A DNA stretch of 64,000 nt. Source: Nitrospirales bacterium (GTDB lineage Bacteria; Nitrospirota; Nitrospiria; Nitrospirales; UBA8639). Under the pieces are notes generated by a model. It was not told the origin of the DNA. It made no database searches and saw only the letters and a program-made list of their open reading frames with translations. Positions 3,456 through 60,205 of this stretch are shown here, piece by piece. Made by a program: the position numbers and the translations under genes. The DNA is taken from assembly GCA_965223295.1 (NCBI GenBank), contig CBDCWC010000002.1:768001-832000 (forward strand). Direction: 5' to 3'. Within the stretch, counting starts at the first letter, position 1; the number at the start of each line of letters is the position of its first letter.

Positions 3456-3491
3456 TAGACAAAAATTGGTGACTTGCTGGGTAAATGTCTA
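3456..3491 (-). promoter_or_regulatory. 36-bp box upstream of the csbD-PepSY operon
   Basis: + strand TAGACA-N24-TGTCTA. Confidence 0.7.
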
Positions 3492-3603
3492 GTACTCAAG
3501 TATCTCGATTCAATAAACACTTTTCACCCAAGCACGAGATTAAGAAAGAGAACTGGATGTTTTTTAGAACCGTAAAAATAAGGAAGGCTACATAGTGGAA
3601 AAA

Positions 3604-4482
3604 CTATGCTGTTGCAGTTTTGTTTTGAGCAGCATTTTCAAGCACGACGTCTACCTCGCCACCAATAAGCAAGACTAATCCACTCATGTACAGCCACAAC
3701 ATAAGCACGATGACTCCCGCGAGTGAACCATAGGCGGCATTGTACGTTCCAAAATTGGCGACATAATATTTGAAGGCTAGAGAAGACAAGAGCCAAAGCA
3801 TCACGGCCACCACTGAACCGGGTGTGATAACACGCCATGAGTGATTAACATTTGGCGCCATATAGTAAATCATACTCACAGCTAACAGCATGAACATGAC
3901 CACAAGCGGCCACTGTACTAAAGACCAACTTATCGTAAAGACGGCGCCGTAGCCTATGGCATTGGCAATCCATTGACTCATATAGCCACCAGCAAGGATA
4001 AGAAATATGGAGAGAATAACGAAAAGAGTGCAAACGATCGTCATAATCATGGCAATGCCTCGGGCTTTCCACAACGGTCGAAAATCCTCGACATTGTAGA
4101 CCGTATTCAGGGTATCAATGATCGCAGCCATTCCTGTGGAGACGGCCCAGAACGTGCCCAGAAAGCTCAAAGATAAAATACCTGCTCCACTCCCTGCCAC
4201 CACTTGATTCAAGTAGGTTTCGATTAACGGCATCGAATCAACTGGAAGAACGGTTTCGAGGTAAGACAATACCTTGGGAAGCATGGATTGAGTGGGCAAC
4301 AATCCGATGAACGCGGTGAGGAACATGAGCGCGGGGAACAGGGCAAGTTGAAAATAAAAGCCCAATTGCGCGGCTCTTCCAAATAGATCATCTTGTTGAA
4401 TTTCTTCCCAAACCTGCTGGAGGAGTTCTATCCAAGATAGACCTTGTAAATTCCAGGTTGATTTTTGCGGCATGGGTTTCAA
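3604..4482 (-). CDS. YihY/BrkB family membrane protein
   Basis: AAQLGFY..LALFPAL and YNAAYGSLAGVIVLMLWLY...GGE motifs. Confidence 0.9.
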   Translation of the reverse strand: MKPMPQKSTWNLQGLSWIELLQQVWEEIQQDDLFGRAAQLGFYFQLALFPALMFLTAFIGLLPTQSMLPKVLSYLETVLPVDSMPLIETYLNQVVAGSGAGILSLSFLGTFWAVSTGMAAIIDTLNTVYNVEDFRPLWKARGIAMIMTIVCTLFVILSIFLILAGGYMSQWIANAIGYGAVFTISWSLVQWPLVVMFMLLAVSMIYYMAPNVNHSWRVITPGSVVAVMLWLLSSLAFKYYVANFGTYNAAYGSLAGVIVLMLWLYMSGLVLLIGGEVDVVLENAAQNKTATA

Positions 4483-4582
4483 ATGAACAATGTAAGGAGA
4501 TGAGATAATACCGTGAATAGTCTAAACGCTCTCAAATTCTTGATTTTAAGACATTGAATTAATATCACCAATACTTGGGAAT

Positions 4583-4611
4583 CTGCCTCGAGTCACTATG
4601 ACTCGAGGCAG
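4583..4611 (-). terminator. Stem-loop downstream of the BON gene, possible terminator
   Basis: CTGCCTCGAGTCA-cta-TGACTCGAGGCAG perfect 13-bp stem. The U-tract is weak. Confidence 0.55.
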
Positions 4612-4628
4612 GTAACCAAACCACACAG

Positions 4629-4940
4629 TCAGTTCGATTCTATTTGGAGATTATTGTTCACTCTTTTAACGCCATCGACTTGCCCGGCCAGTTGCTCCGC
4701 TTGCTTTTTCGCAGCTTCAGTTTCCACGACACCATTGAGGGTAACAATACCTCTGTCAGTATCCACATCAATCCGTGTTAGCGATGCCATGCTGTCTCCA
4801 GCAAGTTTTGTTTTTACCGAGGACGTAATCATTGTATCATCGATATTCGTACCGGCAGTTTTTCCGGTCATCGCTTGACAGCCCGTCATCATAACTAACG
4901 ATAAGATGATCACACCCAAATAAGTCATCACTCGGTTCAT
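4629..4940 (-). CDS. BON-domain (OsmY-like) lipoprotein
   Basis: Lipobox MTGC; DDTMITSSVKTKL...IDVDTDRGIVTLNG...VDGVKRVNNNL. Confidence 0.9.
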   Translation of the reverse strand: MNRVMTYLGVIILSLVMMTGCQAMTGKTAGTNIDDTMITSSVKTKLAGDSMASLTRIDVDTDRGIVTLNGVVETEAAKKQAEQLAGQVDGVKRVNNNLQIESN

Positions 4941-4985
4941 AGTCTTTCTCCTTAATAAGATTATTAATGATTGGAACGAATGGAA

Positions 4986-6099: not shown

Positions 6100-6135
6100 T
6101 AGATTTTTTTCCTATTTTCGCAGTCAAAATGTCTA
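6100..6135 (-). promoter_or_regulatory. Degenerate box upstream of the sod-ytxH-BON operon
   Basis: TAGATT-N24-TGTCTA. Confidence 0.5.
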
Positions 6136-6233: not shown

Positions 6234-6269
6234 TGAACATTTTGTTCATGTCACAGTTGTTTTAGTCCA
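6234..6269 (+). promoter_or_regulatory. Degenerate box upstream of 6360
   Basis: TGAACATTT...TTTAGTCCA, N24. Confidence 0.5.
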
Positions 6270-6359: not shown

Positions 6360-6599
6360 ATGAGACAAGCGCTTTCACAACCGACACAGCACTTCAGTCA
6401 CATGACTGAGAAGGATCAAGTCTTTGAAAATTATTATCGGTGCGGAGGGATGTTAGTAGACGATCGGTGCTACGACCTTACAAGCAGTGGAATCTTCAAG
6501 ATTGCGACCAAACGGTGCATTCAATGCGGAGATGTGATTGACCCCGTGATTCTTCAACATCGACGTCACTCAAGATTGAGTGAAGCCTACGCAAGTTAG
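6360..6599 (+). CDS. Small Cys-rich zinc-ribbon-like protein
   Basis: AGGAGG RBS; RCGG...RCIQCGDVIDPVIL..R. The first expected Cys reads Tyr. Confidence 0.6.
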   Translation: MRQALSQPTQHFSHMTEKDQVFENYYRCGGMLVDDRCYDLTSSGIFKIATKRCIQCGDVIDPVILQHRRHSRLSEAYAS

Positions 6600-6649
6600 A
6601 ATATTTTTACGGGAAAGGCAGCACAAAAAATCTTGCTAGACAAATTCGA

Positions 6650-7843
6650 TTAACGAGCAGGAAGCATGTCCATATTGACGTTTAACTTTTCAACGATATT
6701 TCCGGAACGCAAGCTACCAATGAACTCTTTGGGGTCCACTGGCTCTGGAAGTGGCAAATCCACGTTATACCAATTATCCTTGGGCTTCCCTCTTTTGACT
6801 CGGATCTCATCGAAAAACCCATTAACCTTATCGTCGTCAATGTCTTTCTTAAAGCGTACTTGAACATGACGCGTCACGACTGATGTCGTAATAATTTCGA
6901 TATCGCTTCTCTTCGACAAAGGTTTTAGAATTTTATCTGGTGATTCTGAGTTGGGAACGCTCATATTAAAGGAATACCACCCACCCATCTGCGCATGATC
7001 TTGGGCGGACACATCTTTAAAGAATTTTTCTATCCCCGTAGGCTTCGTTCCTTTTTTGAATCGTACCCACACCGGACGACTTTCCAGAATTCCACTTTTG
7101 AAAGTTTCGGCTTTCTTCTCTAGTAATGTGTTGCCAGTGTCCTGACTCTGCTCACTTCGGCTGACAACTTGAGTTCCTAATGTCTGCTGTTCCCCATCTG
7201 TGCCACTATTTACCGCCATAACCGAGGTCTGATCCAGTCGCTTCTGAATCGCGGTCAGTTGTTGGAGCACTTCCTGAAGCTGATGATCCTTGGAAGCCAC
7301 AAGTGAGCCTCCGTCATTCGAGCGAGTGGAAGTTTGTGCAAATCGGTCAATAACTAGGAACACTACCCCTGCAGCTAAAATGATTTGAGCCGCGAGAGCA
7401 AGCATGGACCATGAACTCGGTTCATTTTTGCCATCTTGTTGCTTTTGCTCGCTTGATTCACTCACTGAGGGCTCTGATGGGATAGCCAGTAGGTTTTTCG
7501 ATGTCAGTTGAACGACACTCTTGTCTTCCTCACGCTGAAGATCGAGTTCAAACACATAATTTCCAGCCTGCAATTCTGCCTCTGCGGACTTCTGACCCTC
7601 AGACGAAAGAGAACCCACTGGAAGCCCGGAAGACGACCGAAGTTCTATAAGACTCGGAGAAGGGCCGACTTGAAAAGTTTTTGTGGCGATAGCTTGAGGA
7701 TGACATTCTAGGGTACCAACGCTCTTGTTATCCACAAAGATTTGAATTGATTCTAGTGATTCAGTTTCTCTTCGGTAGCGTTGATCCCACAATGCCTGAA
7801 TGAGGTATTCCTCGTATGCTTTGAGCTCTTCCTTAGCTTCCAT
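6650..7843 (-). CDS. Single-pass membrane protein with two tandem C-terminal repeats (anti-sigma/sensor-like architecture)
   Basis: Central TM segment (MLALAAQIILAAGVVFLVI). Two repeats: VWVRFKKG..GIEKFFKDV..GWYSF and VQVRFKKD..KVNGFFDEI..NWYNV. Overlaps the upstream gene. Confidence 0.65.
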   Translation of the reverse strand: MEAKEELKAYEEYLIQALWDQRYRRETESLESIQIFVDNKSVGTLECHPQAIATKTFQVGPSPSLIELRSSSGLPVGSLSSEGQKSAEAELQAGNYVFELDLQREEDKSVVQLTSKNLLAIPSEPSVSESSEQKQQDGKNEPSSWSMLALAAQIILAAGVVFLVIDRFAQTSTRSNDGGSLVASKDHQLQEVLQQLTAIQKRLDQTSVMAVNSGTDGEQQTLGTQVVSRSEQSQDTGNTLLEKKAETFKSGILESRPVWVRFKKGTKPTGIEKFFKDVSAQDHAQMGGWYSFNMSVPNSESPDKILKPLSKRSDIEIITTSVVTRHVQVRFKKDIDDDKVNGFFDEIRVKRGKPKDNWYNVDLPLPEPVDPKEFIGSLRSGNIVEKLNVNMDMLPAR

Positions 7844-8720
7844 GCTGTTGTACTCCCGAAAAGTTACCCTGCAATATTTTTGATGTTGGGCTTGCCAGTT
7901 GAAGCTGCAATTTCAATTCTAGTGATTCTTCACTTTGAGCACCCTGGACCGTAGACTTGTAGACCATATCGAGACAGGGATAGCACATTGCCAGATGCCA
8001 AATGCGATAATCTTGCCCATAACCATCCGAGAACATCTCTTCCCATTTCTCTTGTGTTTGGCATGGGTAATGCTCTGGTTCACTTTTTCTGTAATGAGAC
8101 TGCACCTCTATCAACAATTTCTGAGCTTCGGGATTAACGATATGAGGTTTGACTTCCAGCTGCTGCTCTAAACTGGCAATCTGTGAAATATCGAGACCAA
8201 TTTCTTGCATGGTTCTATGCCATCCAGATTGTCGCCAACGAGTGAAATTTTTGTAAATCCGCTGACTTTGTTCCTCGGCTAGGCCAAGTAGCTTAATCAC
8301 CTGCGAAGGAGTAAAACTATAAAAATGCGTAAATTGAGCAATGAGGGCATCTCGACTGATTACGGCCCTCGAAGTCAATCCATCAATAAATTTTTCAAGA
8401 GGTGAGTGCGGCGTAGGATGGTAAATAAATGAGTTTGGCTGGCTAAAGTGCTTTGCGACAAAGCTATCCAACAGAAGAACTGGTCGACAAGGAACTTCAT
8501 TGCGGGCATAGACAAGAAAACGTTCAACCAATTCATAGGCTAACCGTAGCGCCAATTTTTCATGGTTCACGTTTTCAGACCAACTATTCGTCTCCTTCAA
8601 TAATTTTTTCGTGTAACTACTTGCTCGGCTTAAAAGTAGAGACATAGACTCTTCCGCGAACTGATCGTACTCGGCTTTAGTCCGGACGATTGTGTCTGAA
8701 ATGACGGGTTGAGTATCCAT
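7833..8720 (-). CDS. Putative transcription regulator with a sigma region-4/HTH-like segment and C-terminal HxxxCxxC
   Basis: SRDALIAQFTHFYSFTPSQVIKLLGLAEEQSQRIYKNF is HTH-like; WHLAMCYPC is the HxxxCxxC motif. Start placed at MDTQPV after AGAGGGA; the ORF track extends to 8837. Confidence 0.55.
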   Translation of the reverse strand: MDTQPVISDTIVRTKAEYDQFAEESMSLLLSRASSYTKKLLKETNSWSENVNHEKLALRLAYELVERFLVYARNEVPCRPVLLLDSFVAKHFSQPNSFIYHPTPHSPLEKFIDGLTSRAVISRDALIAQFTHFYSFTPSQVIKLLGLAEEQSQRIYKNFTRWRQSGWHRTMQEIGLDISQIASLEQQLEVKPHIVNPEAQKLLIEVQSHYRKSEPEHYPCQTQEKWEEMFSDGYGQDYRIWHLAMCYPCLDMVYKSTVQGAQSEESLELKLQLQLASPTSKILQGNFSGVQQHGS

Positions 8721-8874
8721 TCCCTCTGATAATGTTGAATTTTTTTTTATGCGGAATGGAAGCAGTGTACCCAGAACATGAGTACATGGCAACCTGTCAG
8801 GAGTCGAATCCGTCCAGGGAGGAAAGGTTGAGTTCATAATAAATTCCCCAGGATTTACGGACTTTTAAAGTCTA

Positions 8875-9394
8875 TCAGTTCACGGTCTTGGTCGGCTGAG
8901 CTTCTAAGGAAGATGACTTGAGGCATTTGAGAATTTGACGTTCGGCTTCTAGCCAGTCCTCCCATTCTCGACCAGGATCGCATCCCCTCTCTTCAAAGAG
9001 CCTGTACGCCAAGCTTTGGATGTCCTGGTGAAAAAAAGAGCGAATTGCGGCATCAATCGGTCCTCCCAGAAACGGTTCTTCATTTCCTCTCGGCCCGCCG
9101 ACAACTTGGTCAGCTCCCAAACGAAGCACTTCGGGAACAGCATTCCTGACGGAAGCCCCAGCCACGATAAGAATCTTTCCCATGAATCCCTGCTGACGTA
9201 GATTCTCCACAATCTTCAGAGCGTTAGGATCCACTATATATAAGTCCAATACAACAACATGGGGATCAGTCTCTAGCACCAAATGTGCACACTTCCTGAC
9301 TATGGGGAGAGACGACGACTTCATAACCTTGCTGACTGAGAAACTCTGTGAGTTGGTTTCGGAGCGATTTATGGTCTGTCGCTACGACAATCAT
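8875..9394 (-). pseudogene. Atypical receiver (REC) + DUF2934 fusion, frameshifted near 9290
   Basis: Frame A from ATG 9394 reads MIVVATDHKSLRNQLTEFLSQQGYEVVVSPHSQEV. Frame B continues AHLVLETDPHVVVLDLY...IQSLAYRLFEERG..GREWEDWLEAERQI (DUF2934). One extra base separates them; this could be a sequencing error. Confidence 0.75.
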
Positions 9395-9514
9395 GAGCTT
9401 TCTCACCCCAAGATACGTGGCACCATCGAAAACAATTTTCTACTCTTAAGACTGCACCAAACTTATCTTTTCCGTTTAGTCGGTAACTTAGCTACAGAAT
9501 AAAGAATTATTCAA

Positions 9515-9550
9515 TGGACAAACCTGTCTACCCCATTTGCAAAATGTCCA
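9515..9550 (-). promoter_or_regulatory. Box upstream of the candidate regulator operon
   Basis: TGGACA-N24-TGTCCA; TAAGTT lies 24 nt downstream on the - strand. Confidence 0.75.
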
Positions 9551-9579: not shown

Positions 9580-9615
9580 TGGACATTAGGTAAATCGTGA
9601 ATCCAGATTTGTCCA
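9580..9615 (+). promoter_or_regulatory. Box upstream of the Pro-rich ORF
   Basis: TGGACA-N24-TGTCCA. Confidence 0.7.
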
Positions 9616-9642: not shown

Positions 9643-9924
9643 ATGAAGGAAAGAAAAGGTAACCATCGAGCAATGACGGATGAGAGGGGAAATATGGGAA
9701 AAAACAACCCAGCCAAGGAACCTCAAAAACTCAAGCGGGACGATCCACCCATACAAGAGCCACCGAATGAGCCGAAAAAGTCTCCAGTGGAGCCTCCTAA
9801 GCGCACACCTCAAAAACCACCCGTTGAGCAACCACCCACGCCCTCGCCACCTAATGAACCACCATCGAAAGACCCTCAACCCATCGGAGATCCACCACCT
9901 ACGAGTCAACCAGTCATGACGTAA
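9643..9924 (+). CDS. Small Pro-rich disordered protein
   Basis: Repeats of PP(I/V)(Q/E)(E/Q)PP. Preceded by a regulatory box. The start may be a downstream Met. Confidence 0.5.
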   Translation: MKERKGNHRAMTDERGNMGKNNPAKEPQKLKRDDPPIQEPPNEPKKSPVEPPKRTPQKPPVEQPPTPSPPNEPPSKDPQPIGDPPPTSQPVMT

Positions 9925-11422: not shown

Positions 11423-11458
11423 CAGACATTTCGTGCCTCCAGGGTAGCGATTTGTCCA
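11423..11458 (+). promoter_or_regulatory. Box upstream of 11517
   Basis: CAGACATTT...TTTGTCCA, N24; TACGAT 25 nt downstream. Confidence 0.7.
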
Positions 11459-11516: not shown

Positions 11517-11813
11517 ATGACTAATCCACAAAAGGCAAACTTGATCAAGCCATGGATTAATCCTGCGGAACGAATTACGGTGGACTTTACAGATATCCGA
11601 GGGTTAACTGCGCAAGTGCTCGGATGCACGGAGAATGTGGTGCATTTAGCTTTTCCTGAAACATTTCCTCACATGAAAGATCGAGTCACGATTCCCTTAC
11701 GGAAGGTGCATGTAGGAGAAGATCGTAGCCATTACACTCGAGATCCACAGTCTCCCATTCAATGGGGGCGACTTCGTTTGCGGATCGAACAAAAGCATCC
11801 CGATGCTCTCTAA
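11517..11813 (+). CDS. Hypothetical protein
   Basis: GAGGAG RBS, 98 aa, preceded by a box. Confidence 0.6.
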   Translation: MTNPQKANLIKPWINPAERITVDFTDIRGLTAQVLGCTENVVHLAFPETFPHMKDRVTIPLRKVHVGEDRSHYTRDPQSPIQWGRLRLRIEQKHPDAL

Positions 11814-11938: not shown

Positions 11939-11974
11939 TGTACATCCTGACAACTTTCTCAGGGTATTTGTCCA
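11939..11974 (+). promoter_or_regulatory. Box upstream of the DUF948 gene
   Basis: TGTACA-N24-TGTCCA; TACACT 23 nt downstream. Confidence 0.65.
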
Positions 11975-12098: not shown

Positions 12099-12575
12099 AT
12101 GGATGGAGAAATAGATTTGCTGTTTGAACTCACATTGGCGAGCATGATGGTTGCATTCATTATATTAGCTATTTGTTTGGCAGTGACCGTAATCCAAATT
12201 AAAAAAACGTTCATCCAGGCTGAGCGATTCTTCTCTCAACTCAACACGGATATACCGAAAGTGCTCAATAATTTTCACGTCACGAGCGAAAATATTCGCC
12301 TCATGACCCAGCAGACGCGGGACGGAGTTGGCCATGCTTCGGTTCTTTTCCATGCTGTCGGAGAAATTGGAACGACTGTGAATCAAGTACATGCAGCTTT
12401 GCGTGAAGGAGGGAAAAGACTAATGAACAGCTTCGACGTCATAAAGGCTAGAATCGTGGCCACAGTAACCTACAAACGACAACGATGCAGTGATTTCCAT
12501 AGATCTCCCATAACAAAGCCAACATATATTCCTCAGCCAGACAGAAGAGTAAAGCAGGCATTGACAGGGCACTGA
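12099..12575 (+). CDS. DUF948 (YoxC-like) general stress membrane protein
   Basis: N-terminal TM plus coiled coil; VLFHAVGEIGTTVNQVH. Confidence 0.65.
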   Translation: MDGEIDLLFELTLASMMVAFIILAICLAVTVIQIKKTFIQAERFFSQLNTDIPKVLNNFHVTSENIRLMTQQTRDGVGHASVLFHAVGEIGTTVNQVHAALREGGKRLMNSFDVIKARIVATVTYKRQRCSDFHRSPITKPTYIPQPDRRVKQALTGH

Positions 12576-15251: not shown

Positions 15252-15257
15252 TCCTCG

Positions 15258-17783: not shown

Positions 17784-18311
17784 TTACTTCCGTTGTTCAA
17801 CAGGCATACCTGAATCGACTGCATCAAGGGCAGATCCACCAGAGATTGCACTCATGGCTCGATCACGTTCTTGACGGATATTTGATGTTTCTTGTTGAAG
17901 AGCATCTCGCTCTTTCAAATACTGATCCCGCTCTTTAACTAATTGTTTAGTTTCTTGGTTTCCGTTTTCGTTAGCGCTCTTAGCCTGAATAGATCCGCCC
18001 TTACTAGCGCTGGCCTGAGCCTGTTGCGCTTCATCACGTTCCTTTTTGGCTTGATCACGTTCCTTTTCAGCCTGTTCTTTGCTTTTCTTAGCTTCATCTC
18101 GTTCTCGAATTAGCTGATCGCTCCATGTTGCGCCAAACTTTGCACTAGGATGTTTCTTAACGTCAGACATGCCACTAGCTGACGAGGGTGACGTGGAAGA
18201 ACCGACCGACTTGTCCATGGCCACAGCTAATTGCACCGCTCCTGATGCGACAAATAATCCACACATTGCTAACGCGAAAATTGGAGATTTACCCTTTTTC
18301 ATGATGACCAC
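17784..18311 (-). CDS. Secreted hydrophilic coiled-coil protein with ERD repeats
   Basis: Signal peptide and repeated (K/R/Q)ERD(E/Q/A/R). Confidence 0.65.
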   Translation of the reverse strand: MVIMKKGKSPIFALAMCGLFVASGAVQLAVAMDKSVGSSTSPSSASGMSDVKKHPSAKFGATWSDQLIRERDEAKKSKEQAEKERDQAKKERDEAQQAQASASKGGSIQAKSANENGNQETKQLVKERDQYLKERDALQQETSNIRQERDRAMSAISGGSALDAVDSGMPVEQRK

Positions 18312-18595: not shown

Positions 18596-18631
18596 TGGAC
18601 AAAAATGGGAATATACGTTCAAAGATGTCCA
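18596..18631 (-). promoter_or_regulatory. Box upstream of 18311
   Basis: TGGACA-N24-TGTCCA; TAGAAT 24 nt downstream. Confidence 0.75.
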
Positions 18632-24135: not shown

Positions 24136-24171
24136 TGGACATTTCAGAAGATGCGTTCTGTCTTTTGTCCA
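24136..24171 (+). promoter_or_regulatory. Box upstream of hemerythrin 1 and FNT
   Basis: TGGACATTTCAGAAGATGCGTTCTGTCTTTTGTCCA. Confidence 0.75.
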
Positions 24172-27216: not shown

Positions 27217-27251
27217 TAGACATTTTTAAGCTTATAGTTACGATTTGTCCA
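27217..27251 (+). promoter_or_regulatory. Box upstream of hemerythrin 2
   Basis: TAGACA-N23-TGTCCA. Confidence 0.65.
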
Positions 27252-28275: not shown

Positions 28276-28311
28276 TAGACTTTCTTCATTGAAATATGGA
28301 TTTTTTGTCCA
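28276..28311 (+). promoter_or_regulatory. Box upstream of PRC-barrel and katA
   Basis: TAGACT-N24-TGTCCA; TATGGT 25 nt downstream. Confidence 0.7.
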
Positions 28312-35071: not shown

Positions 35072-35107
35072 TGGACAAATTCGTAATCTTGTTTCGGAAA
35101 TTGTCCC
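35072..35107 (-). promoter_or_regulatory. Box upstream of 34938
   Basis: TGGACA-N24-TGTCCC; TAGAAT 24 nt downstream. Confidence 0.7.
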
Positions 35108-35171: not shown

Positions 35172-35207
35172 TAGACATTTTTGGTTAAAATTCTGATCTT
35201 TTGTCCA
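35172..35207 (+). promoter_or_regulatory. Box upstream of double-BON 35330
   Basis: TAGACATTTTTGGTTAAAATTCTGATCTTTTGTCCA. Confidence 0.75.
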
Positions 35208-36566: not shown

Positions 36567-36602
36567 TAGACATTTCACTTTGCCAACCATGCAATTTGTC
36601 CG
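36567..36602 (+). promoter_or_regulatory. Box upstream of PRC-barrel 36725
   Basis: TAGACA-N24-TGTCCG; TACGTT 24 nt downstream. Confidence 0.7.
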
Positions 36603-40836: not shown

Positions 40837-40872
40837 TAGACATTTACGTTCTTGAGAAGCTGAATTTGTACT
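40837..40872 (+). promoter_or_regulatory. Box upstream of 41051
   Basis: TAGACATTT...TTTGTACT, N24; TATCTT 24 nt downstream. Confidence 0.55.
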
Positions 40873-43918: not shown

Positions 43919-45656
43919 GGCTGCGTGAAAGCTGCTCTTGAATCACTTGATCAAGTTCGTGAGACAGTAACGGTTTCATCAAAAAAGCCGTGATGCCGAC
44001 GGCCTGCGCTCGTTCTGGTGTCATGACATGGCTAAAACCTGTACAAAGAATAACTGGCATTTCGGGCTTGAGTGATAACACTCGTCTCGCGAAGTCTTCA
44101 CCAGTGATTTTAGGCATGGTTTGATCGACAACGACGACATCGAATGACTCCGGATTGGCCTCAAATAACGCCAATCCCTCTGATCCACTTGTACAGGCAA
44201 CGGCGTTGTACCCCAATCGCTGCAACATTTCTACTCCCATACGAGCGAGAGGTTCCTCATCGTCGATCAAAAGGATTCTTCCTGGAATTCGAGGTGCCAG
44301 CGGCGGTGGTGTCTGAACAGGTTTGGTGGTTGGTTTATTCTTGAGGGGCAAATAGACTCCGAATCGTGATCCTTTTGGGCTACTTTCTTCAAGAATAATG
44401 ATGCCTTTATGGTGGGTCACGATACCATGTGCGACGGATAACCCCATGCCGGTGCCTTCTCCTAATTCTTTGGTTGAAAAAAATGGATCAAATATTCGTG
44501 ACTGGACTTTTGCCAAGATTCCAGAGCCTGTATCTTGCACCGTTAGGTAAACATGGGGCACCGGCTTAAGAGGAGGATGTGCTTTGGCAAACTCGGAAGA
44601 GACCTCAATGCGTGACATTTGAATGGTTAAACACCCCCCGGTTTCTCGCATCGCATATTCAGCATTCGTACACAGATTGATGATGACCTGATGAAGTTCG
44701 GTGGGATCAGCCAGCACCCACAAGCTTTCTTTCTCCACGAGATGGGTTTCAATGCGAATTGTTTTGGGAAGTGTCGCCTGCAACAATTGAATGGATTCTT
44801 GGATGAGATGTTTCGGATCCAGCAATTGTTTTGTTGGTTCGGTTTGGCGACTAAACGCTAATATTTGACGGACGAGATCCTTCGCACGAAATCCGGCGGT
44901 TAGCACTTCATCCAAATAGCGATGGATTGGACTACCCGATGGCAGGTTACTCCGGGCAAGCTCTAAATTTCCTAGCATGGCTGCCAAAATATTATTAAAG
45001 TCGTGAGCAATCCCTCCAGCGAGCGTGCCAATGGCTTCCATTTTAAAAGCTTGTCGTAACTGTCGTTCGGTATGAATAAGTATGGCCTCAGCTTTTTTCC
45101 TGTCAGAGATGTCAACCACGGTAGTGCGAAACAGTTTTTTTGTACTAGAAGGCTCGTGAATCAGCACACTCTCAAGGCGTAAGGGAATGGTTTTTCCACT
45201 CGTGTGCACACACTCAACTTCTGTCGATGAGGAGCGAATCTTCACCGAAAATTTCCTTAAATGAGCTGAAAACATTTTTCGAGCTTCATGGGTTAAATAG
45301 AGAAGAAACGGCTTACCCGAGAGGTATTCACATCCGTACCCTAAAAGTTCTGCTCCTTTTTTATTCGCCTGCTGAATGAGTCCATGCTCATCAATGATGA
45401 AATATCCGACGGGCGCCTGGTCGAATAGGTCACGATATCGCCGAGACGACTCTTCCAGATTCTCCTGCACTTGCCGCAGTTCTTCATTTTGTGTACGCAA
45501 TTCTTCTTGATGGATTGTGAGATTTTCTAAAGTACTCGACAGCTCTCGCTCAATCTGTTCCTGATATTCTTCTCGAGCTTGTAATCGAGTCACCTCTTTT
45601 TGTAATCGATCAACCTCGATCTGGAGGGCTTGGAATTTGTGTTCAGATTCAGACAT
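43899..45656 (-). CDS. PAS hybrid sensor histidine kinase (HisKA-HATPase-REC)
   Basis: AGGIAHDFNN, NLCTNA, GTGMGL; receiver VVDQTMP...KP. Confidence 0.95.
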   Translation of the reverse strand: MSESEHKFQALQIEVDRLQKEVTRLQAREEYQEQIERELSSTLENLTIHQEELRTQNEELRQVQENLEESSRRYRDLFDQAPVGYFIIDEHGLIQQANKKGAELLGYGCEYLSGKPFLLYLTHEARKMFSAHLRKFSVKIRSSSTEVECVHTSGKTIPLRLESVLIHEPSSTKKLFRTTVVDISDRKKAEAILIHTERQLRQAFKMEAIGTLAGGIAHDFNNILAAMLGNLELARSNLPSGSPIHRYLDEVLTAGFRAKDLVRQILAFSRQTEPTKQLLDPKHLIQESIQLLQATLPKTIRIETHLVEKESLWVLADPTELHQVIINLCTNAEYAMRETGGCLTIQMSRIEVSSEFAKAHPPLKPVPHVYLTVQDTGSGILAKVQSRIFDPFFSTKELGEGTGMGLSVAHGIVTHHKGIIILEESSPKGSRFGVYLPLKNKPTTKPVQTPPPLAPRIPGRILLIDDEEPLARMGVEMLQRLGYNAVACTSGSEGLALFEANPESFDVVVVDQTMPKITGEDFARRVLSLKPEMPVILCTGFSHVMTPERAQAVGITAFLMKPLLSHELDQVIQEQLSRSHGTRHS

Positions 45657-45786: not shown

Positions 45787-48700
45787 TCACGGCGGATATT
45801 GTTCTTTCAAAACTTGAATGTCGACCATGAGAAAGAACAATCCCTTGACCGTTGTTTTATCATTTGCATCTTCATCAGGAACGAAAGTTATTTGAACCCA
45901 GCGTGGGCTTCCATCTTTATGAAGCAATTGAAACTCAAACGTGACATGCTCTCCCGCCAGCGCTTTAGCTATGTATGATGTAAGCTTTTCGTACGTGCCC
46001 TCTCCCAGTACGTCCTTGATATGTGCCTGCTGCACATCTTCCTGTGTCATTCCGACCCACTCTAAAAACTGATTATTCACGATCTGAATCCGATGGTCGG
46101 AATCAATCGATCCAATGAGAGCTGGACAATGATCCATCACGAGCCGACATTGGTTTTCCTGTTCTTGAATAAGACGTTTCGCTTCTTTTGTGTCTGTAAT
46201 ATCTTCAGCTAAGCAGACAAACCGCACCACTTCCCCAATTTCGCTAAGGATCGGCCAACTGCGGTCTCTAATCCACTTTGTTGAACCATCAGGCCGAAGA
46301 ATTCGATAATCGATATCTTTATATTTGACGGGTTCTGTTTCTTTCCAATACTCTTGAACGCGATTTCGGTCGCCAGGATGAATCGTGGTGATCCAGTCCA
46401 TGTCTGAATCATACAAGGTTTGACAAGGTCTCCCCCAAATTTTTTCATAAGCAGGACTCACATACTGCACATGCTTTCCGGTTGGATCTGTGATCCAAAA
46501 CACCTCAGTGATGTTCTCTGCAATTTGACGGAATCGTTCTTCACTTTCGCGAAGTGCCCGTTCGGCTTCCTTGTCTTCCGTAATATCCATGAAGGTCAAA
46601 ACAGCTCCGATTGGCTCCAAATCCTGTGAGTAGTAAGGAACACCTTGAAACAAATAGACCTTCCCATTGTTCGATAATTCTCGGACCTTTGCTCGTTTCT
46701 CACGCATCACTTCTTCGATATCGTCTCGTAAAGTCGGAAAATGCAATTTACAGGGCATCGTGCTTAAATTATGCCCGATACTTTCTTGCGTGATCGTGAA
46801 GATAAATTTAGCGGGAGGGGTAAATCGAGTCAGGTTCAATCGCTTGTCGACGACGAGCATGGCGAATCCAACGGCATGCTGGATATTCTCCAAATCTGCA
46901 TTAGCAGCACTCAACTCAGCCGTTCGCTCCTGTAATTCTTCATTCAACGTGTTAAGCTCTTCATTCGTCGACTGAAGCTCTTCATTCGCAGTTTCGAGTT
47001 CTTCGTTTGAAGATTGAAGTTCTTCATTGGCCGATTGAAGTTCTTCATTCACAGACTGGAGCTCTTCATTAGCTGTTTCAAGTTCCTCAACGGTCGTGTG
47101 TAAGTGTTCTTGAGTAACGGTCAGTTCGTTCTGTAATTCTCGAATACGCGTTTCTGTAACATCTTCCACCTGAAGAGAAGATGGGGGAGAGAGAGTCGAT
47201 GCCTGAGAGACAGCAGGCTCAAATGCCACCAGTTTACTGCCCTGACGACCATAGCCCTCAATGGGTTGAATGTAGAGATGAAAATGAGCTTGAGTCTTAT
47301 CATCCCTCAGCTTGAGCTCTCGACTGCGAACCGGCTTCATATCTTTTCCGACTTTTGTCAATAAGGCGCGTAAATCTGTTCGAATTTCTGGGCGCGCCAT
47401 TCGTAATACCTGCAAGTTTGAGTCCCCTTCCGGAAGTGATAGATAATTCTTGACATCACCTCGTACGTGAAGAACTTCATGTTGTTCATTGACAACGATC
47501 GCTGGAGGCCCATAAGCGTCTATGAGGACCCGGTTCGCCACCTCAGCCAGGGGTAGCTCGTTTGTCATGTTCGCTTGATTTGTCACGAACTTTTTCGAGA
47601 GTGCCGGCAACCTGCCCAATGTAAATTCTGGCTTCCGCCTTTTGAACTCCCCACGACACCGAAAGATCTTCGTCTTCTTATGGTCGACTGGAGAAAACAG
47701 ATCGACGTACTGTCCAACCGATTCGGACTTCCCAAGGAAAAGATACCCATTTGGTTGCAGCACGTAGTGGAATAGGGGAAGAATTTTTTGCTGAAGCGTT
47801 GCGGAGAAATAGATTAAGACATTTCTGCAGCTAATCAGATCCAGATGAGAAAATGGGGGATCTTTTACGAGATCCTGTCGAGAGAAGACGACCATTTCTC
47901 TGATTGATTTATTCACTCTGAACGAATGATCCATTCTCGAAAAGTATTTATTCAGGATTTCTTTGTTGACCGTGGTTAGCGCCGTTTCCGAATAGAGTCC
48001 TTTACGTGCTCGTGTGAGGGCTTCTGAATCAATATCTGTGGCAAATATTTGTATCGGTACGTAGATTTTAATCTCTTCCTGTACGACGCTCAGAAGAATC
48101 GCGATCGTGTAGGCTTCTTCTCCGCTGGCGCAGCCTGGTATCCATATCCGAACCGTTTCCCGACGCTTCTTGCTGGTGATGATGTGTTGGAGGACGGGCC
48201 TTAACGAGTCAATAGACTCCGGATCACGAAAAAACCCTGTCACCGAAATAAGAATGTCCTTAAACAACGCATCAAGCTCTTGCGGATTCTTTTCAAGCAA
48301 TTGAACATAATGTGAGAGATCTTGGATTTTATGAACGGTCATCCTCCGCCCTATCCGGCGAAGAATCGTATTTTGCTTGTACCCGGAAAAATCACAGCCC
48401 GTCCGATTATTCAGTAAGGACATAAGCGATTGCATCACCGTTGGGATATCCGCTCCACGAGCAAGTTTCGGAATTCGGGTAGGGTACACCAGCACTCCAA
48501 GAAGATTTTCTCCTATCTCCTGAGGGGTCATGATCAGGTCGACATGACCCGTATCGATCGCAGCTCTAGGCATTCCATCGTATTTGGCCGAATCAGGCTT
48601 TTCAGCAATGGTGATTCCGCCGTTGGCTTTCACGGCAGTCATGCCATGAGCGCCGTCGGTCCCCGTGCCCGACAGAATAATTCCCACGCTCTTTTCTCCC

Positions 48701-49173
48701 CGATCTTCTCCGAGGGTTGTTAGTAATAAATCGATAGAGGGTTTTGGACCTAAGAGAGTTGTCGGCTTGGGAAGTAGAAGACGGCCTTCAGAGACGACCA
48801 CATTGCAGTCTGGAGGGGTAATGTAGATGGTCGCCGGCTTTGGCACGATTCCGTCTTGCACTTCCTGAACAGGGAGATCTGTATGTCGACTTAACAAGGC
48901 TGTCAACATGCTGGGATGCTTTGGGTCTAAATGCTGCGCCACCACATACGTCAGATTGTCTCGGTTTGGCAAGGATGGCAACAGGGCCTGAAGAGCCTCA
49001 AGTCCACCGGCAGACGCTCCGATTGCGACGATGACCAAATCCGAACCGTCGTGAAGTTCTTTTGAAGAAGAGGTGGTCTTAACGGACTTGGAGGATGGCT
49101 GAGTTTTATTTGTCGACTGGCGTTGGGATTTTGCTGATGCGGCGGTCTTTTTGGACTTTTTTTCTCGTGTCAT
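45787..49173 (-). CDS. CheB methylesterase-CheR methyltransferase-coiled coil-PAS fusion
   Basis: GASAGG/QHL/GTDG (CheB); GCASGEEAY, ATDID, ISCRNVLIY (CheR); NEEL heptads; PAS domains; no kinase domain. Confidence 0.95.
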   Translation of the reverse strand: MTREKKSKKTAASAKSQRQSTNKTQPSSKSVKTTSSSKELHDGSDLVIVAIGASAGGLEALQALLPSLPNRDNLTYVVAQHLDPKHPSMLTALLSRHTDLPVQEVQDGIVPKPATIYITPPDCNVVVSEGRLLLPKPTTLLGPKPSIDLLLTTLGEDRGEKSVGIILSGTGTDGAHGMTAVKANGGITIAEKPDSAKYDGMPRAAIDTGHVDLIMTPQEIGENLLGVLVYPTRIPKLARGADIPTVMQSLMSLLNNRTGCDFSGYKQNTILRRIGRRMTVHKIQDLSHYVQLLEKNPQELDALFKDILISVTGFFRDPESIDSLRPVLQHIITSKKRRETVRIWIPGCASGEEAYTIAILLSVVQEEIKIYVPIQIFATDIDSEALTRARKGLYSETALTTVNKEILNKYFSRMDHSFRVNKSIREMVVFSRQDLVKDPPFSHLDLISCRNVLIYFSATLQQKILPLFHYVLQPNGYLFLGKSESVGQYVDLFSPVDHKKTKIFRCRGEFKRRKPEFTLGRLPALSKKFVTNQANMTNELPLAEVANRVLIDAYGPPAIVVNEQHEVLHVRGDVKNYLSLPEGDSNLQVLRMARPEIRTDLRALLTKVGKDMKPVRSRELKLRDDKTQAHFHLYIQPIEGYGRQGSKLVAFEPAVSQASTLSPPSSLQVEDVTETRIRELQNELTVTQEHLHTTVEELETANEELQSVNEELQSANEELQSSNEELETANEELQSTNEELNTLNEELQERTAELSAANADLENIQHAVGFAMLVVDKRLNLTRFTPPAKFIFTITQESIGHNLSTMPCKLHFPTLRDDIEEVMREKRAKVRELSNNGKVYLFQGVPYYSQDLEPIGAVLTFMDITEDKEAERALRESEERFRQIAENITEVFWITDPTGKHVQYVSPAYEKIWGRPCQTLYDSDMDWITTIHPGDRNRVQEYWKETEPVKYKDIDYRILRPDGSTKWIRDRSWPILSEIGEVVRFVCLAEDITDTKEAKRLIQEQENQCRLVMDHCPALIGSIDSDHRIQIVNNQFLEWVGMTQEDVQQAHIKDVLGEGTYEKLTSYIAKALAGEHVTFEFQLLHKDGSPRWVQITFVPDEDANDKTTVKGLFFLMVDIQVLKEQYPP

Positions 49174-49305: not shown

Positions 49306-49341
49306 TGGACAAAATTTTCCTTGAAAAATGCAATATGTCTA
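49306..49341 (-). promoter_or_regulatory. Box upstream of the cheBR-kinase operon
   Basis: TGGACA-N24-TGTCTA. Confidence 0.72.
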
Positions 49342-50622: not shown

Positions 50623-51267
50623 TCATGAATGATCAGATTCAAGCCACAATTTGCTCTTGACTCGCTTCGCGCCTGCCTCATATGCATTCTCCACAGCGTC
50701 TGCGATTTCTCCTTTATTTTCAACTCCTCCATAGAGAGTAACTACGCCATTCTTCACACTCACGCTGATTCGATCTGAATTGACATACGGACTCCACGCC
50801 AATTCTTCTTTTACCTCTTCCATCAATTCTATATCTGTCATGTCTAGCCAGACCCTCTCACCTCGGTGACGTTGGTCTAACTGATTGTGAACCTTCCAAG
50901 CCCCTGAATCATAGGCAATTTCAATAGCATCCACCATCGCGCTTCGATCTTCGACAGTGCCGAAAAGTGTGGCAACTCCATTCACGACTGAGACGTTGAT
51001 GTCTTCTCTATCCACAAACGGGCTCATGGCTAAATTCATCCTAATACGCACGCGAAGCTGGCCATCGGTGAGTATACCATCCTCATCGTATTCGGAGTCG
51101 TATCCAGAGTATGGATTATAGTTATAACCAAAGTAGTAGTGTTCATAAAAAGGACTGTCATAGAGACTTGCATCTTGATTTTGGCTTAGAGCAATTCGTG
51201 GTGTGGCGGCAATAATGATGAATCCCAGTGCTATGGCCGTTAGCTTGAATGAATGTAATAACGTCAT
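50623..51267 (-). CDS. Secreted double-BON protein (paralog of 35330..36094)
   Basis: SPFVD..I.V.V..GVATL.G.VEDR.AM..A.E.AY occurs twice. Confidence 0.88.
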   Translation of the reverse strand: MTLLHSFKLTAIALGFIIIAATPRIALSQNQDASLYDSPFYEHYYFGYNYNPYSGYDSEYDEDGILTDGQLRVRIRMNLAMSPFVDREDINVSVVNGVATLFGTVEDRSAMVDAIEIAYDSGAWKVHNQLDQRHRGERVWLDMTDIELMEEVKEELAWSPYVNSDRISVSVKNGVVTLYGGVENKGEIADAVENAYEAGAKRVKSKLWLESDHS

Positions 51268-51343: not shown

Positions 51344-51379
51344 TAGACAAAATTAGAGTCCACTCGTAAGATTTGTCTA
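51344..51379 (-). promoter_or_regulatory. Box upstream of double-BON 51267
   Basis: TAGACA-N24-TGTCTA; TACGTT 24 nt downstream. Confidence 0.75.
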
Positions 51380-57582: not shown

Positions 57583-57918
57583 TTATTGCTTGGAAACTGG
57601 CTCGTGTTCTTCTGGAACATCCACATCAATGTCCGGTACAGGAACCTCTACCGTATCTGTGCTCACATCTACATCTGGCGTTCGCACATCAACATCAGGA
57701 AGTTTGCCGCTTGTCGCATCCACGTCAACATCTGGCATCTGAGCTTCCTGAGTCTGCTTAAACTCAGGCAGCTGCCCTCCCGTTGCGTCCACATCGACAT
57801 CTGGTAGCTTGCCCTCCTTCTCGACATCCACGTCACACGCTACTAGGGCAAACATTAAACCCGCTGCACAAGCTACTATGAACCATTTGCTTAACATATG
57901 ACTTCTCCTTGTCTCCAA
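57583..57918 (-). CDS. Lipoprotein with PDVDV repeats
   Basis: LVAC lipobox; repeated (L/M/T)PDVDV. Confidence 0.75.
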   Translation of the reverse strand: METRRSHMLSKWFIVACAAGLMFALVACDVDVEKEGKLPDVDVDATGGQLPEFKQTQEAQMPDVDVDATSGKLPDVDVRTPDVDVSTDTVEVPVPDIDVDVPEEHEPVSKQ

Positions 57919-58071
57919 TTAATCGAGACACATAATCGTTGATGACTCGAATTGATATCATGTATTTCCACTATGGCCCTTATAGACAAAACAATATCGT
58001 ATCTACTAGACGAATGAGAGCTCAGTTACGCCGTTTCATAAAACCACATTAGAGCGCAAGTGTTTGTATTA

Positions 58072-59016
58072 TTAGGCTTTACTCCCATGGGCAGAAAATT
58101 CTGAAGTTAGCCCCTGTTTTTGGAGTTCTTCCTTAGCCTTTTCCGTTGCAGTTTCTTGAACCTTTTCAGTCGCCTGTACGACTTTGTCGCCTATTTCTTG
58201 TGCTTTGTTCCGTGCTTGATCCACCAGAGTATCACGGGCCTCTCCCATCCATTCGTCTTCCTGGCGGGTCCCAGGTGCGGAAAGTCCAACCGCTGCACCA
58301 ACGGCAAATGCCATCGCACCCACACCCCAAGGACTTTCCTGGAATGTTTCATCAAACCCGCGTTTGGCACGACGGGTTCGCTCTTGTACTTGATCTTTTA
58401 ATTCCCCTGCTCGATGTTGAACCTGAGTAGAGAATCCTTCAACTTGGCCCTTGACCCGTCCACTCAATTCGCTCGCACTTTGCTGGATTGTCTGAGCCGT
58501 TTCACCAACTTTGCCTTGAACTGTTTCGGCAGCGCCCTCGACCCTGGCCTTAAGGGCTTGAGCCGTTTCACCAGCTTTAATTTGTAACTCTTCTAACCTA
58601 CTTGATTCACGATCAACATAGGGATCATAGGGATTACGATAGGCAGTTGATCTACTGTATTCAGGCAAATATGCCTCATGAGATTCATCCGATTTCGCTT
58701 TCAAAAGCCATGCCAATCCCAATCCGATCAGTGCCACTGGTACTGGGTTCTGCGTAATGATATCTGTGACATTCCCGCCCCATCTCCTTGCCGTATAACG
58801 CGCTGATTGAGCCATATCTTCTACCTTTCCGACAGTCGCGTCTCGCACTTCCTGTTTGAGCCGATCGGGCGACAGCCTAGCTTGAATGTTGGTAATCGTT
58901 TCTTTGACTTCTGCTCTGGTTCGTTCCACGCGCGCGCGAAGCACATCTGTCTTTTCTGAGGGATTTTCTTCACCATCCTCAACGCGAACGTTTATCTCAT
59001 TTGTTGGGCGACCCAT
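58072..59016 (-). CDS. DUF3618-containing protein
   Basis: LRARVERTRAEVKETI..IQARLSP, NPVPVALIGLG and P.TRQED.WMG. Confidence 0.85.
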   Translation of the reverse strand: MGRPTNEINVRVEDGEENPSEKTDVLRARVERTRAEVKETITNIQARLSPDRLKQEVRDATVGKVEDMAQSARYTARRWGGNVTDIITQNPVPVALIGLGLAWLLKAKSDESHEAYLPEYSRSTAYRNPYDPYVDRESSRLEELQIKAGETAQALKARVEGAAETVQGKVGETAQTIQQSASELSGRVKGQVEGFSTQVQHRAGELKDQVQERTRRAKRGFDETFQESPWGVGAMAFAVGAAVGLSAPGTRQEDEWMGEARDTLVDQARNKAQEIGDKVVQATEKVQETATEKAKEELQKQGLTSEFSAHGSKA

Positions 59017-59384
59017 TGTGTATCCTCCTTAAGAGCATTAATGGCTTGTTCAGGAACCGGGCTCACGTGTTTAAGATCATTTAATCCTTTCTGAATCAAT
59101 CCGTAACCTATAGCCACGACCATAATGCCAACCATGAGTGCTGCTACCCAACCAGGAAAAAATTGGGCAACTAATAATACAGCCGCAGCTAATAAGACCA
59201 AGAGTCCTCCATAGGCCAACGCAGCCCCAATTCCTACAAAAAGGAGATCTTCCCCTGCACGTGAAACTTTTTGGGACATCTCGACCTTGACCAATTCTAC
59301 TTCCTGCTTGACTAAGGCCTTAGCTTCATAAACCAGTTCTCTTAGCAACTCGCTCAATGATTGTTCCTGCTCCATTCGTATCAT
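58992..59384 (-). CDS. Holin-like (YhjD/YqjE-type) membrane protein
   Basis: SLSELLREL...LVKQEVELVKVE, two TMs, then P.QAI..LKED. Confidence 0.85.
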   Translation of the reverse strand: MIRMEQEQSLSELLRELVYEAKALVKQEVELVKVEMSQKVSRAGEDLLFVGIGAALAYGGLLVLLAAAVLLVAQFFPGWVAALMVGIMVVAIGYGLIQKGLNDLKHVSPVPEQAINALKEDTQWVAQQMR

Positions 59385-59465
59385 GGTTTCCCCTTTTTTG
59401 ATGTTATTACCGTCTATGCTAAAGACAGACGTTAGGCTACGTCCGCGATCCCTGCCAAGATATCC

Positions 59466-60005
59466 TTACACTCTCATTGGTTGAGACATTGCATCTCTTT
59501 CTTTCAGCTGTCGACGGCTATTCTCGGCACTTCTCCGTTGTCGGGAGCTCTTAATAAAACGAGCCGCTATCAGGCCTAACCCGAATGTCACTCCAATGAA
59601 TAACTCCGGATTTCTCCGAGCCAATCCTTCGCCTTCCTCAATAAGTTGATCCACGTCTCGATTAGAAAGGTATCCTGATACTCTCTCTAGTTGCTGAGCA
59701 GCTTTTTCGGTGTATTGAGCAACAACATTCTGATCTCGCTGCCGGAGCTGGGCTCCAGTTTGCCGAAACGCTTGTGCAAGATTTCCTAATTCTCCAACAG
59801 CTTTTTCCTTTCCATCCCCTAGAGCTGACTTTGTCTTACGTTGGGCCTCATCAGCATAGGCTTTTACCTCGGCTTGTCCTTGTTTCACCATGGAGCCTGC
59901 CTTCTCTTGAATCGTTTCTTTTATACCCTCAGACCTTACATCCTGACCTTTGCCTTGGATTGTAGATTCTGCTTTACGTTTGGCTAACTCTTCCATAATC
60001 ATCAA
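59466..60005 (-). CDS. Helical protein with C-terminal membrane anchor (ElaB/YqjD-like tail)
   Basis: ARRNPELFIGVTFGLGLIAARF. Confidence 0.7.
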   Translation of the reverse strand: MMIMEELAKRKAESTIQGKGQDVRSEGIKETIQEKAGSMVKQGQAEVKAYADEAQRKTKSALGDGKEKAVGELGNLAQAFRQTGAQLRQRDQNVVAQYTEKAAQQLERVSGYLSNRDVDQLIEEGEGLARRNPELFIGVTFGLGLIAARFIKSSRQRRSAENSRRQLKERDAMSQPMRV

Positions 60006-60170
60006 CCTCCTTATATATAGATGTAAAAAATAATGAGATCTTCCTCAATCCCCAATTGTGAACTGTACCTAAGCCTGTCAGTCGCAAGGCACAAAGGCTT
60101 GCTGGGCTATATGGCTAGTGCGGAAATTTAATAAATAGGTAGTGTAGAGCTTAGGAAAGATTAAGAATAC

Positions 60171-60205
60171 TGGATAAATTCCAGTTTCATTCGAAAAAAT
60201 GTCCG
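60171..60205 (-). promoter_or_regulatory. Box upstream of the 60005-holin-DUF3618 operon
   Basis: TGGATA-N23-TGTCCG; TACACT 24 nt downstream. Confidence 0.6.

Follow-up and report, generated by a model that had tools for sequence, protein, structure and literature searches.

Among the closest described counterparts of the system reported here are the general stress regulons under SigB in Bacillus, RpoS, and EcfG-NepR-PhyR in Alphaproteobacteria. Our subject is a 36-bp inverted repeat, TRGACA-N24-TGTCYA (the box), that recurs in a 64,000-nucleotide (nt) stretch of DNA from a Nitrospirales bacterium (GenBank assembly GCA_965223295.1, contig CBDCWC010000002.1, positions 768,001 to 832,000 of the forward strand; this whole stretch is called the window). 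The box is spacing-specific and directional, stands in a fixed register with downstream TTG and TAnnnT elements, is confined to a mobile island plus one small chromosomal locus, and co-occurs with a gene pair encoding the proteins p334 and p397. We propose, with roughly an even chance of being correct, that it is an activator-type operator abutting the −35 element, bound by p334 and defining an island-borne stress regulon. The genes concerned are like those of the SigB, RpoS and EcfG regulons (CsbD, BON, PRC-barrel, catalase, SOD, Dps, YtxH and DUF948, with receivers and hybrid kinases inside the regulon), whereas the box does not match the promoter consensus sequences of those systems, the regulon sits on a mobile island instead of being dispersed, and the p334 family is restricted to two Nitrospirales families.

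Promoters of extracytoplasmic function (ECF) sigma factors carry a −35 GGAAC and a −10 GTC (CGTC-like) element 16–17 nt apart, and ECF operons are usually autoregulated. Systems of this kind, such as E. coli sigmaE, Streptomyces SigR-RsrA with its zinc-binding anti-sigma (ZAS) domain, and the groups with fused C-terminal domains, resemble our locus in the HxxxCxxC motif of p334, in the membrane-protein gene directly downstream, in the cis element before the regulator's own operon, in oxidative and envelope stress targets, and possibly in the predicted two-domain fold of p334, which is similar to regions 2 and 4. Unlike them, p334 has no Sigma70_r2 or Sigma70_r4 sequence match and carries the Cys/His motif within the sigma-like protein itself; p397 lacks an anti-sigma domain; and the box elements are inverted, 24 nt apart, and followed by a separate sigma-70-type TTG and TAnnnT. 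Class II activators of the CRP/FNR type bind compact 16–22 bp palindromes at about −41.5, and tandem class I and class II sites also occur. The box is similar in being palindromic, in abutting a weak −35 in fixed register with the −10, and in being able to serve divergent promoters, but its half-sites are 30 bp apart around an unconserved 24-nt spacer, the candidate binder is sigma-like and does not have the CRP fold, and the box start sites are predicted.

Full-text literature searches turned up no published match to the box, which the earlier note on this DNA had said would remove the novelty of the motif, and no description of stress-protection control or of a stress regulator in Nitrospira; the only hexamer look-alike found there was the site of the Thermococcus kodakarensis regulator Tar (TK0271). 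Tar recognizes TGGACA-N8-TGTCCA at aromatic amino acid genes and has an activating role (PMC6737238); the inverted hexamer half-sites are identical to those of the box and likewise lie upstream of the core promoter, but the spacer is 8 nt instead of 24, the regulator is archaeal, and no relationship between the proteins is evident. The N8 spacing gave no match in the window and one in the genome. The box system is known in kind, as a dedicated regulon with an autoregulated regulator and the gene content of SigB, RpoS or EcfG, but not in its motif and regulator. What is unusual is that half-sites 30 bp apart are locked to a core promoter, that a candidate regulator family with a predicted sigma-like fold is invisible to profile libraries, and that the whole regulon is on a mobile island.

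The box and its putative core promoter

Exact copies of TRGACA-N24-TGTCYA number nine in the window, starting at 3456, 6637, 9515, 9580, 18596, 24136, 35172, 49306 and 51344, against 0.03 expected, a count reached in none of 100 shuffles. When all spacings from 0 to 60 nt were scanned, N24 gave these nine matches, N23 one (27217), N4 one that is an overlap inside box 9515, and the remainder none. With up to two mismatches allowed, there were 27 matches compared with 7.5 expected. The earlier note had listed 18 copies, 16 with 24-nt and two with 23-nt spacers and with half-sites 30 bp apart. All 18 are present as exact or near copies, and the tally and the distance were correct: eight are exact at N24, five have one mismatch (11423, 11939, 28276, 35072 and 36567), three have two (6100, 6234 and 40837), 27217 is exact at N23, and 60171 is an N23 copy with two mismatches (TGGATA...TGTCCG). 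The exact copy at 6637 had been overlooked. Spacer sequences are different in every copy.

Twenty-three of 25 boxes examined on the surrounding island lie wholly outside open reading frames (ORFs) of at least 100 amino acids, which make up 72.7% of the island; the other two overlap ORF ends only. The boxes point at gene starts 60–290 nt away. Gene calls were taken from uncurated greedy ORF maps, and Pfam confirmed the named stress targets in the window (CsbD, Fe/Mn SOD, catalase, BON, PRC-barrel and hemerythrin) and added YtxH, DUF948, BrkB, MscS-BON, Pmp3, a CheB-CheR-PAS fusion and two hybrid kinases. Neither of two outcomes that the earlier note had named as evidence against the box, enrichment of spacings other than N24 and an equal frequency in coding DNA, was observed, and its idea of a dedicated regulator is supported by a real, spacing-specific, non-coding cis element facing stress genes.

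Read in the direction of the gene, the consensus is T[A/G]GACATTT, approximately 18 unconserved nt, then tTTTGTC[C/T]ATTg. The box element is directional: among 11 boxes with co-directional flanking genes, read by eye, TTT precedes the gene-proximal half in 10 and occupies the mirror position of the distal half in one. A hexamer TAnnnT begins at box positions 60–62, 24 nt past TGTCYA, in 20 of 43 oriented sites (23 from this genome and 20 from two relatives), compared with a background mean of 0.82 per position over −55 to 139, where all other positions reach 3 or fewer; this genome alone contributes 11 of 23. The trinucleotide TTG occupies box positions 37–39, its three bases being found in 28, 30 and 21 of 35 sites, respectively. 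If TTG is a −35 remnant and TAnnnT a −10 element, the spacer between them is 18 nt, which is ordinary sigma-70 geometry. A plain symmetric operator does not account for this directionality and fixed register. A −10 hexamer with A at position 2 and T at position 6 in fixed register and a site abutting the −35 are the marks of activator-dependent sigma-70-type promoters, a class to which the box promoters would belong, with a start site predicted from the sequence. In two boxes from relatives, L004:1443 and L068:18144, a hexamer stands in register on both sides, so that these boxes would serve divergent promoters. A sigma-54 reading of TGGACA as part of a −24/−12 promoter was dropped, as no conserved GC element was found at the right distance.

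A mobile island and the p334-p397 pair

In the whole genome (3.78 Mb, three contigs) there are 15 exact N24 copies, compared with 0–3 for other spacings and 0–4 for inverse and direct arrangements of the hexamers. Thirteen of the 15 lie within C2:771456–848361, or 3456–80361 in window coordinates. Seven one-mismatch copies were added on the island, and those elsewhere were at the background level of other spacings. A position weight matrix (PWM) trained on 20 island sites found 27 distinct sites above 17.8, the maximum in a reversed-genome control: 21 on the island, two at a second p334-type locus on contig C3, and four elsewhere. The C3 site at 121627 (PWM score 29.8) and the window site at 6234 were outside the training set. 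Box-like sequences at C1:21275 and C3:1675732 in this genome (G000; TGGCCA...TTTTGTCCA, PWM 21.2) are identical on two contigs and so are probably parts of a repeated element.

The box-bearing region is a mobile genomic island of approximately 100 kb. It is bordered by a tRNA-Pro gene with an integrase fragment (C2:760398) and a tRNA-Ser gene with a phage-integrase gene (C2:860380), has a GC content of 44.6% against 47.1% for the genome, and contains three identical insertion sequence (IS) copies. Its distribution is patchy: 40 of 40 relatives (24 of the same genus and 16 of the same order) have 0–3 exact boxes each, which is background, whereas island-borne boxes are present in the genomes G041 and G373. 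The proposal of a general-stress regulon does not hold genome-wide, because the box is restricted to the island and the small C3 locus. Beyond the window, the island encodes PRC, MgtC, Dps/ferritin, YfdX, a six-BON protein, AhpC, a receiver, TrkAH and a broken NhaA. The last of these, a Na+/H+ antiporter gene at L002:1226–2586 (C2:853226–854586), is broken up into three successive ORFs and looks to be a probable pseudogene.

On the minus strand, box 9515 stands in front of an operon for a receiver-DUF2934 protein, p334 (334 amino acids) and p397 (397 amino acids, one membrane segment). Neither p334 nor p397 belongs to a Pfam or NCBIfam family. A paralogous pair, p334'/p397', is located at C3:119048–121090 with a box before it at C3:118399, one of the two exact copies off the island; the C3:121627 box is behind the pair and precedes two csbD genes and mgtC. 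Of 401 genomes sampled from the phylum, 59 have a member of the p334 family, and all of these belong to two families (3 of 39 and 55 of 76 genomes, this genome left out). An exhaustive profile search with the family against 1.84 billion representatives returned only 43 clusters, all of them family-type matches and none linking outward.

Box and p334 occur together in both families and on each of the three islands. Of 27 further Nitrospirales loci, 24 have the box 70–135 nt before the point at which the p334 match begins, in the form [C/T][A/G]GACA-N24/25-TGTC[C/G]A, with the halves conserved and the spacers differing between lineages; G373 is one of three apparent exceptions, its box being further upstream, behind a receiver gene. 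Orthologous island boxes show the same pattern of kept halves and drifting spacers (9515 vs L004:9286; 18596 vs G373:824359). In G041, a single contig holds five exact boxes, which surround a p334 of 75% identity, and G373, from a different genus, has 13 against one in the control, with 11 inside 97 kb around p334. The G041 and G373 boxes precede genes for BON, six-BON, PRC, hemerythrin, PepSY, receiver-DUF2934, receiver and entericidin proteins. Non-island p334 genomes have a single box before p334, and their regulon hardly, if at all, extends past the p334 operon. The other family appears to have a small regulon: there, the strict pattern picks out the p334 box alone, and a looser pattern finds 3–6 per genome compared with 1–2 in the control.

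In one genus, a non-coding GGCACAAT is conserved at box positions 58–65, and 11- and 13-nt indels follow it, the true start codon coming later, which implies that the third element is kept in that genus too. Reading GGAGGCACAATG, downstream of the box in one genus, as a Shine-Dalgarno sequence plus ATG was rejected because three genomes have ATA there, because the 11- and 13-nt indels come after it, and because a better-conserved ATG behind AAGAG is found further downstream. Same-genus p334 homologues of 42–44% identity (L010, L011 and L013–L017) have a conserved block ATCAAGGGATTTTAACAGTAC approximately 110 nt upstream, followed 24–25 nt later by ATTTGTACAA; this arrangement may be a variant box with GTAC halves plus another element. 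The apparent symmetric covariation in these homologues (aGTACg-N24/25-TGTACA) was not relied on, as it comes from a single lineage in which two members misfit and no in-register −10 is evident.

Predicted fold of p334 and readings of the box

AlphaFold2 models of p334 had a predicted local distance difference test (pLDDT) score of 73 for the whole protein and 82 for residues 138–300. VIA-align comparison with 48,161 chains placed residues 49–137 close to ECF sigma region 2, with SigK as the best example (Z 7.5, root-mean-square deviation [rmsd] 2.3, 68 residues aligned) and further matches to AlgU, SigR, SigC, the Bartonella EcfG-type RpoE, SigH, SigG1, SigW and CnrH; ECF sigma factors made up most of the top 16 rows. 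Residues 144–217 resembled region 4 (SigW: Z 5.1, rmsd 2.2, 64 aligned), including sigmaE region 4 on −35 DNA (Z 4.3, 67 of 69 aligned), and also matched SigL, SigK, CnrH, SigH and SigR. The two domains thus match the same family in the right order, with modest Z values. This genome also contains 13 canonical Sigma70_r2 genes, all located off the island. Among 32 aligned family members, C259 and H281-x3-C285-x2-C288 are invariant in all, and C117 is invariant too. The HxxxCxxC with an upstream Cys is the ZAS pattern, a match at the level of the motif, and the cluster together with the targets (SOD, catalase, AhpC, Dps and hemerythrin) suggests redox or metal gating.

In the mechanism that we favor, each promoter would be a directional composite of TRGACA(TTT)-N24-(TTT)TGTCYA, an immediate TTG, approximately 18 nt, and TAnnnT, in which the box is the regulon-specific part. 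With TAnnnT as a sigma-70-type −10, the inverted half-sites would be centered near −69.5 and −39.5, a distance of approximately three helical turns, and the proximal one would lie directly next to the −35 TTG. A symmetric regulator, either dimeric or two-headed, might occupy both half-sites, contact RNA polymerase at the −35 and presumably activate, instead of repress, in the manner of a class II activator. The likeliest direct binder would be p334, which is encoded with the membrane protein p397 in an operon behind a box, and its region-4-like helix-turn-helix would fit −35-like half-sites, T[A/G]GACA being one base from TTGACA, the −35 hexamer recognized by region 4 domains. This choice of regulator is based on the co-occurrence of the box and p334, the position of p334 itself behind a box, these −35-like half-sites, and the Pfam result for 127 ORFs of the island and its flanks (E ≤0.001 or 0.0001), in which no other helix-turn-helix protein was found besides IS transposases. 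Signals, presumably of stress, could be fed in by p397, the receivers and the box-controlled CheB/CheR-kinase operon, and the island would carry the p334 module with approximately 22 box promoters for CsbD, BON, PRC, hemerythrin, SOD, catalase, Dps, AhpC and signaling genes.

Several observations weigh against this mechanism. The Z values of 7.5 and 5.1 are in the range of chance matches between helical folds, and Foldseek searches of the PDB with both p334 models returned nothing at E ≤0.001 and nothing below E 0.6. No sequence-level relationship of p334 to sigma factors was found: no sigma family appeared in any of the 32 family members by Pfam at E values up to 10, NCBIfam gave no match, alignment by hhalign with eight ECF-type sigma factors of this genome had a probability of 1.3%, the best hit of a PDB sequence-profile search was unrelated (E 0.29), and an ESM Atlas search yielded no usable match. 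The putative recognition helix is invariant even in homologues that have GTAC, not GGAC, upstream, and the modeled fold would be more at home in a sigma factor than in an activator acting on its own. Half-site symmetry is not strict throughout the lineages: in one genus, TRGACA is paired with TGTCGA. On the promoter side, the exact TAnnnT at positions 60–62 is missing in 23 of 43 sites, many of which have TAnnn plus another base; in the genus with GGCACAAT, the likely start codon is only approximately 10 nt past the putative −10 hexamer; and a generic sigma-70 scan of 23500–37500 found 18 sites compared with 24.7 in shuffles, post-box promoters, with only TTG at the −35, being missed by it. 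The −10 assignment and all numbering based on it are inferred from sequence.

The main rival makes the box itself the −35/−10 promoter of p334, in this view a diverged sigma factor of the ECF type to which a ZAS-like domain is fused; region 4 would read GGACA and region 2 would read TGTC over a long spacer, with p397 as the membrane partner and the operon autoregulated. This would explain the order of the predicted domains, the HxxxCxxC motif, the box before the p334 operon in most genomes, the directionality, and the strict spacing around an unconserved spacer, and GGAC followed by GTC on the coding strand has the orientation and flavor of ECF elements. Nevertheless, we consider it rather unlikely: the spacer between the hexamers is 24 nt long, or in a few cases 23 or 25 nt, with no other spacing enriched, which puts GGACA approximately 25 nt from GTC compared with 16–17 nt in ECF promoters, and the linker modeled between the p334 domains is short. 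Two different sigma domains would not need 6-bp inverted repeats either, the TTG and TAnnnT downstream in fixed register would be left unexplained, and the sequence comparisons above (Pfam 0/32, hhalign 1.3%, and the 43 clusters) give no sigma signal.

Should the box instead be the operator of a repressor, p334 or another protein, that occludes the −35 until it is released under stress, its proximal half abutting TTG and its span of about −72 to −37 would be in keeping, and a Cys/His sensor domain would suit redox release; but the −35 is reduced to a TTG, a trait of activator-dependent promoters, the site is upstream of the core promoter and not over it, and its strict register with the −10, kept in promoters that are otherwise unrelated, points to a fixed contact between protein and polymerase, all of which makes repression improbable. 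There is a slim chance that an unrecognized factor encoded by the host or the island binds the box and that p334-p397 is merely its most conserved target. DNA binding by p334 is predicted, and several small box-preceded ORFs without a family, such as the Cys-rich 79-amino-acid ORF at 6360–6599 that is conserved in three islands, could supply such a factor; against this stand the co-occurrence of box and p334 across two families, the background counts in the 40 relatives, and the Pfam search that found no further helix-turn-helix protein in the island. A purely structural repeat without a transcriptional role, such as IS ends, miniature inverted-repeat transposable elements or recombination sites, is highly implausible. 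The island does have integrases and three identical IS copies, yet all spacers are different, the copies are non-coding and aimed at gene starts 60–290 nt off, orthologous boxes have diverged in the spacer but not in the halves, and genomes lacking the island have a single box before p334.

Nitrospira and related bacteria oxidize nitrite in oceans, soils and wastewater plants, and the 36-bp box plus its fixed-register core promoter offers a testable regulatory code for them, together with a candidate regulator family that profile libraries do not recognize and that is present in 55 of the 76 sampled genomes of one family. A stress regulon with its promoters and regulator together on a mobile island would offer a way to spread tolerance to oxidative, osmotic and desiccation stress. 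We tentatively suggest a broader view, which we suspect is somewhat more apt to fail than to stand, that p334 founds an unrecognized class of proteins with a sigma-70 fold found only in Nitrospirales. It would act either as a free, symmetric activator that binds pairs of −35-like hexamers spaced 30 bp apart, or as a sigma factor whose promoter spacer is 24 nt long; in both cases, it would be a master switch, gated by redox state or metal, of a general-stress regulon that a 100-kb island carries between nitrite-oxidizer lineages along with the regulon's own promoters. If p334 is a site-specific activator with a sigma fold, or a sigma factor with a much longer spacer, the known roles of sigma-like domains would be widened.

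Box sites in the window and neighboring genes

The boxes of the window and the genes that they face are as follows; hexamer positions are counted from the start of the box.

3456..3491, minus strand: exact N24 box before a csbD-PepSY-csbD-PepSY operon (3384 down to 2020); PWM 31.9.
6100..6135, minus strand: weak box with two mismatches, proximal half AATCTA, before a sod-ytxH-BON-brkB operon (5970 down to 3604); orthologous weak box at L004:12708.
6234..6269, plus strand: box with two mismatches before the 79-amino-acid Cys-rich ORF 6360–6599; PWM 20.5; orthologous boxes at L004:12570 and L067:19221.
6637..6672, minus strand: exact N24 box overlapping the 3' end of p397; PWM 20.6.
6650..7843, minus strand: p397, membrane protein with one transmembrane segment and no Pfam family, always after p334.
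7833..8837, minus strand: p334, candidate regulator; member of a Nitrospirales-only family without a Pfam or NCBIfam match.
8875..9400, minus strand: receiver-DUF2934 gene, first gene behind box 9515; frameshifted compared with intact homologues in L004 and L067.
9515..9550, minus strand: exact N24 box before the receiver-p334-p397 operon (autoregulatory position); PWM 30.4; TAAGTT at 61.
9580..9615, plus strand: exact N24 box, divergent partner of 9515, before the Pro-rich ORF 9643–9924; PWM 30.7.
11423..11458, plus strand: box with one mismatch before ORF 11517–11813; TACGAT at 62.
11939..11974, plus strand: box with one mismatch before a DUF948 gene, 12099–12575; TACACT at 60.
18596..18631, minus strand: exact N24 box before a 175-amino-acid coiled-coil ORF, 17784–18311; TAGAAT at 61; orthologous box at G373:C1:824359.
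24136..24171, plus strand: exact N24 box before a hemerythrin gene, 24266–24694, and an IS-split FNT transporter gene.
27217..27251, plus strand: exact N23 box before a hemerythrin gene, 27343–27771.
28276..28311, plus strand: box with one mismatch before PRC-barrel (28408–29175) and catalase (29242–30723) genes; TATGGT at 62.
35072..35107, minus strand: box with one mismatch before genes for PRC (33787–34938), a YkuD transpeptidase and an M15 peptidase; TAGAAT at 61.
35172..35207, plus strand: exact N24 box before a BON protein gene, 35330–36094; PWM 31.4.
36567..36602, plus strand: box with one mismatch before a PRC-barrel gene, 36725–37087; TACGTT at 61.
40837..40872, plus strand: box with two mismatches before the gene for an SMBP-like protein, 41051–41839; TATCTT at 61.
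49306..49341, minus strand: exact N24 box before a CheB-CheR-PAS fusion gene, 45787–49173, and two hybrid histidine kinase genes (down to 42179).
51344..51379, minus strand: exact N24 box before a BON protein gene, 50623–51267; TACGTT at 61.
60171..60205, minus strand: weak N23 box with two mismatches before ORF 59466–60005; TACACT in register at 61.

The Cys-rich ORF at 6360–6599 is convergent to p397 and has no family. Each of the three islands has a box before this ORF, which may be an additional part of the regulatory system. The frameshifted receiver-DUF2934 gene is found at about 9290–9400 and at 8875–9324, with roughly the initial 37 residues in a different frame from that of the intact homologues in L004 and L067; in the homologues of this protein, the usual N-terminal acidic pair reads HH. 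The CheB-CheR-PAS fusion (1128 amino acids) and the PAS hybrid histidine kinases at 43899–45656 and 42179–43918 are a possible signal-input module of the regulon.

The IS copies, which have an rve integrase and identical Pfam scores, are at 25568–26344, 61072–61848 and L003:10946–11722. The copy at 25568–26344 splits the formate/nitrite transporter gene into 24805–25590 and 26590–26904, directly downstream of the box-controlled hemerythrin gene. A patatin-like phospholipase is seemingly split as well, with its Patatin part at 38295–38750 and its DUF6363 part at 38979–39155. Also on the island, at 37818–38213, is a gene whose product is homologous to the sensory rhodopsin transducer of Anabaena (ASRT, E 1e-54); no rhodopsin gene was seen near it.

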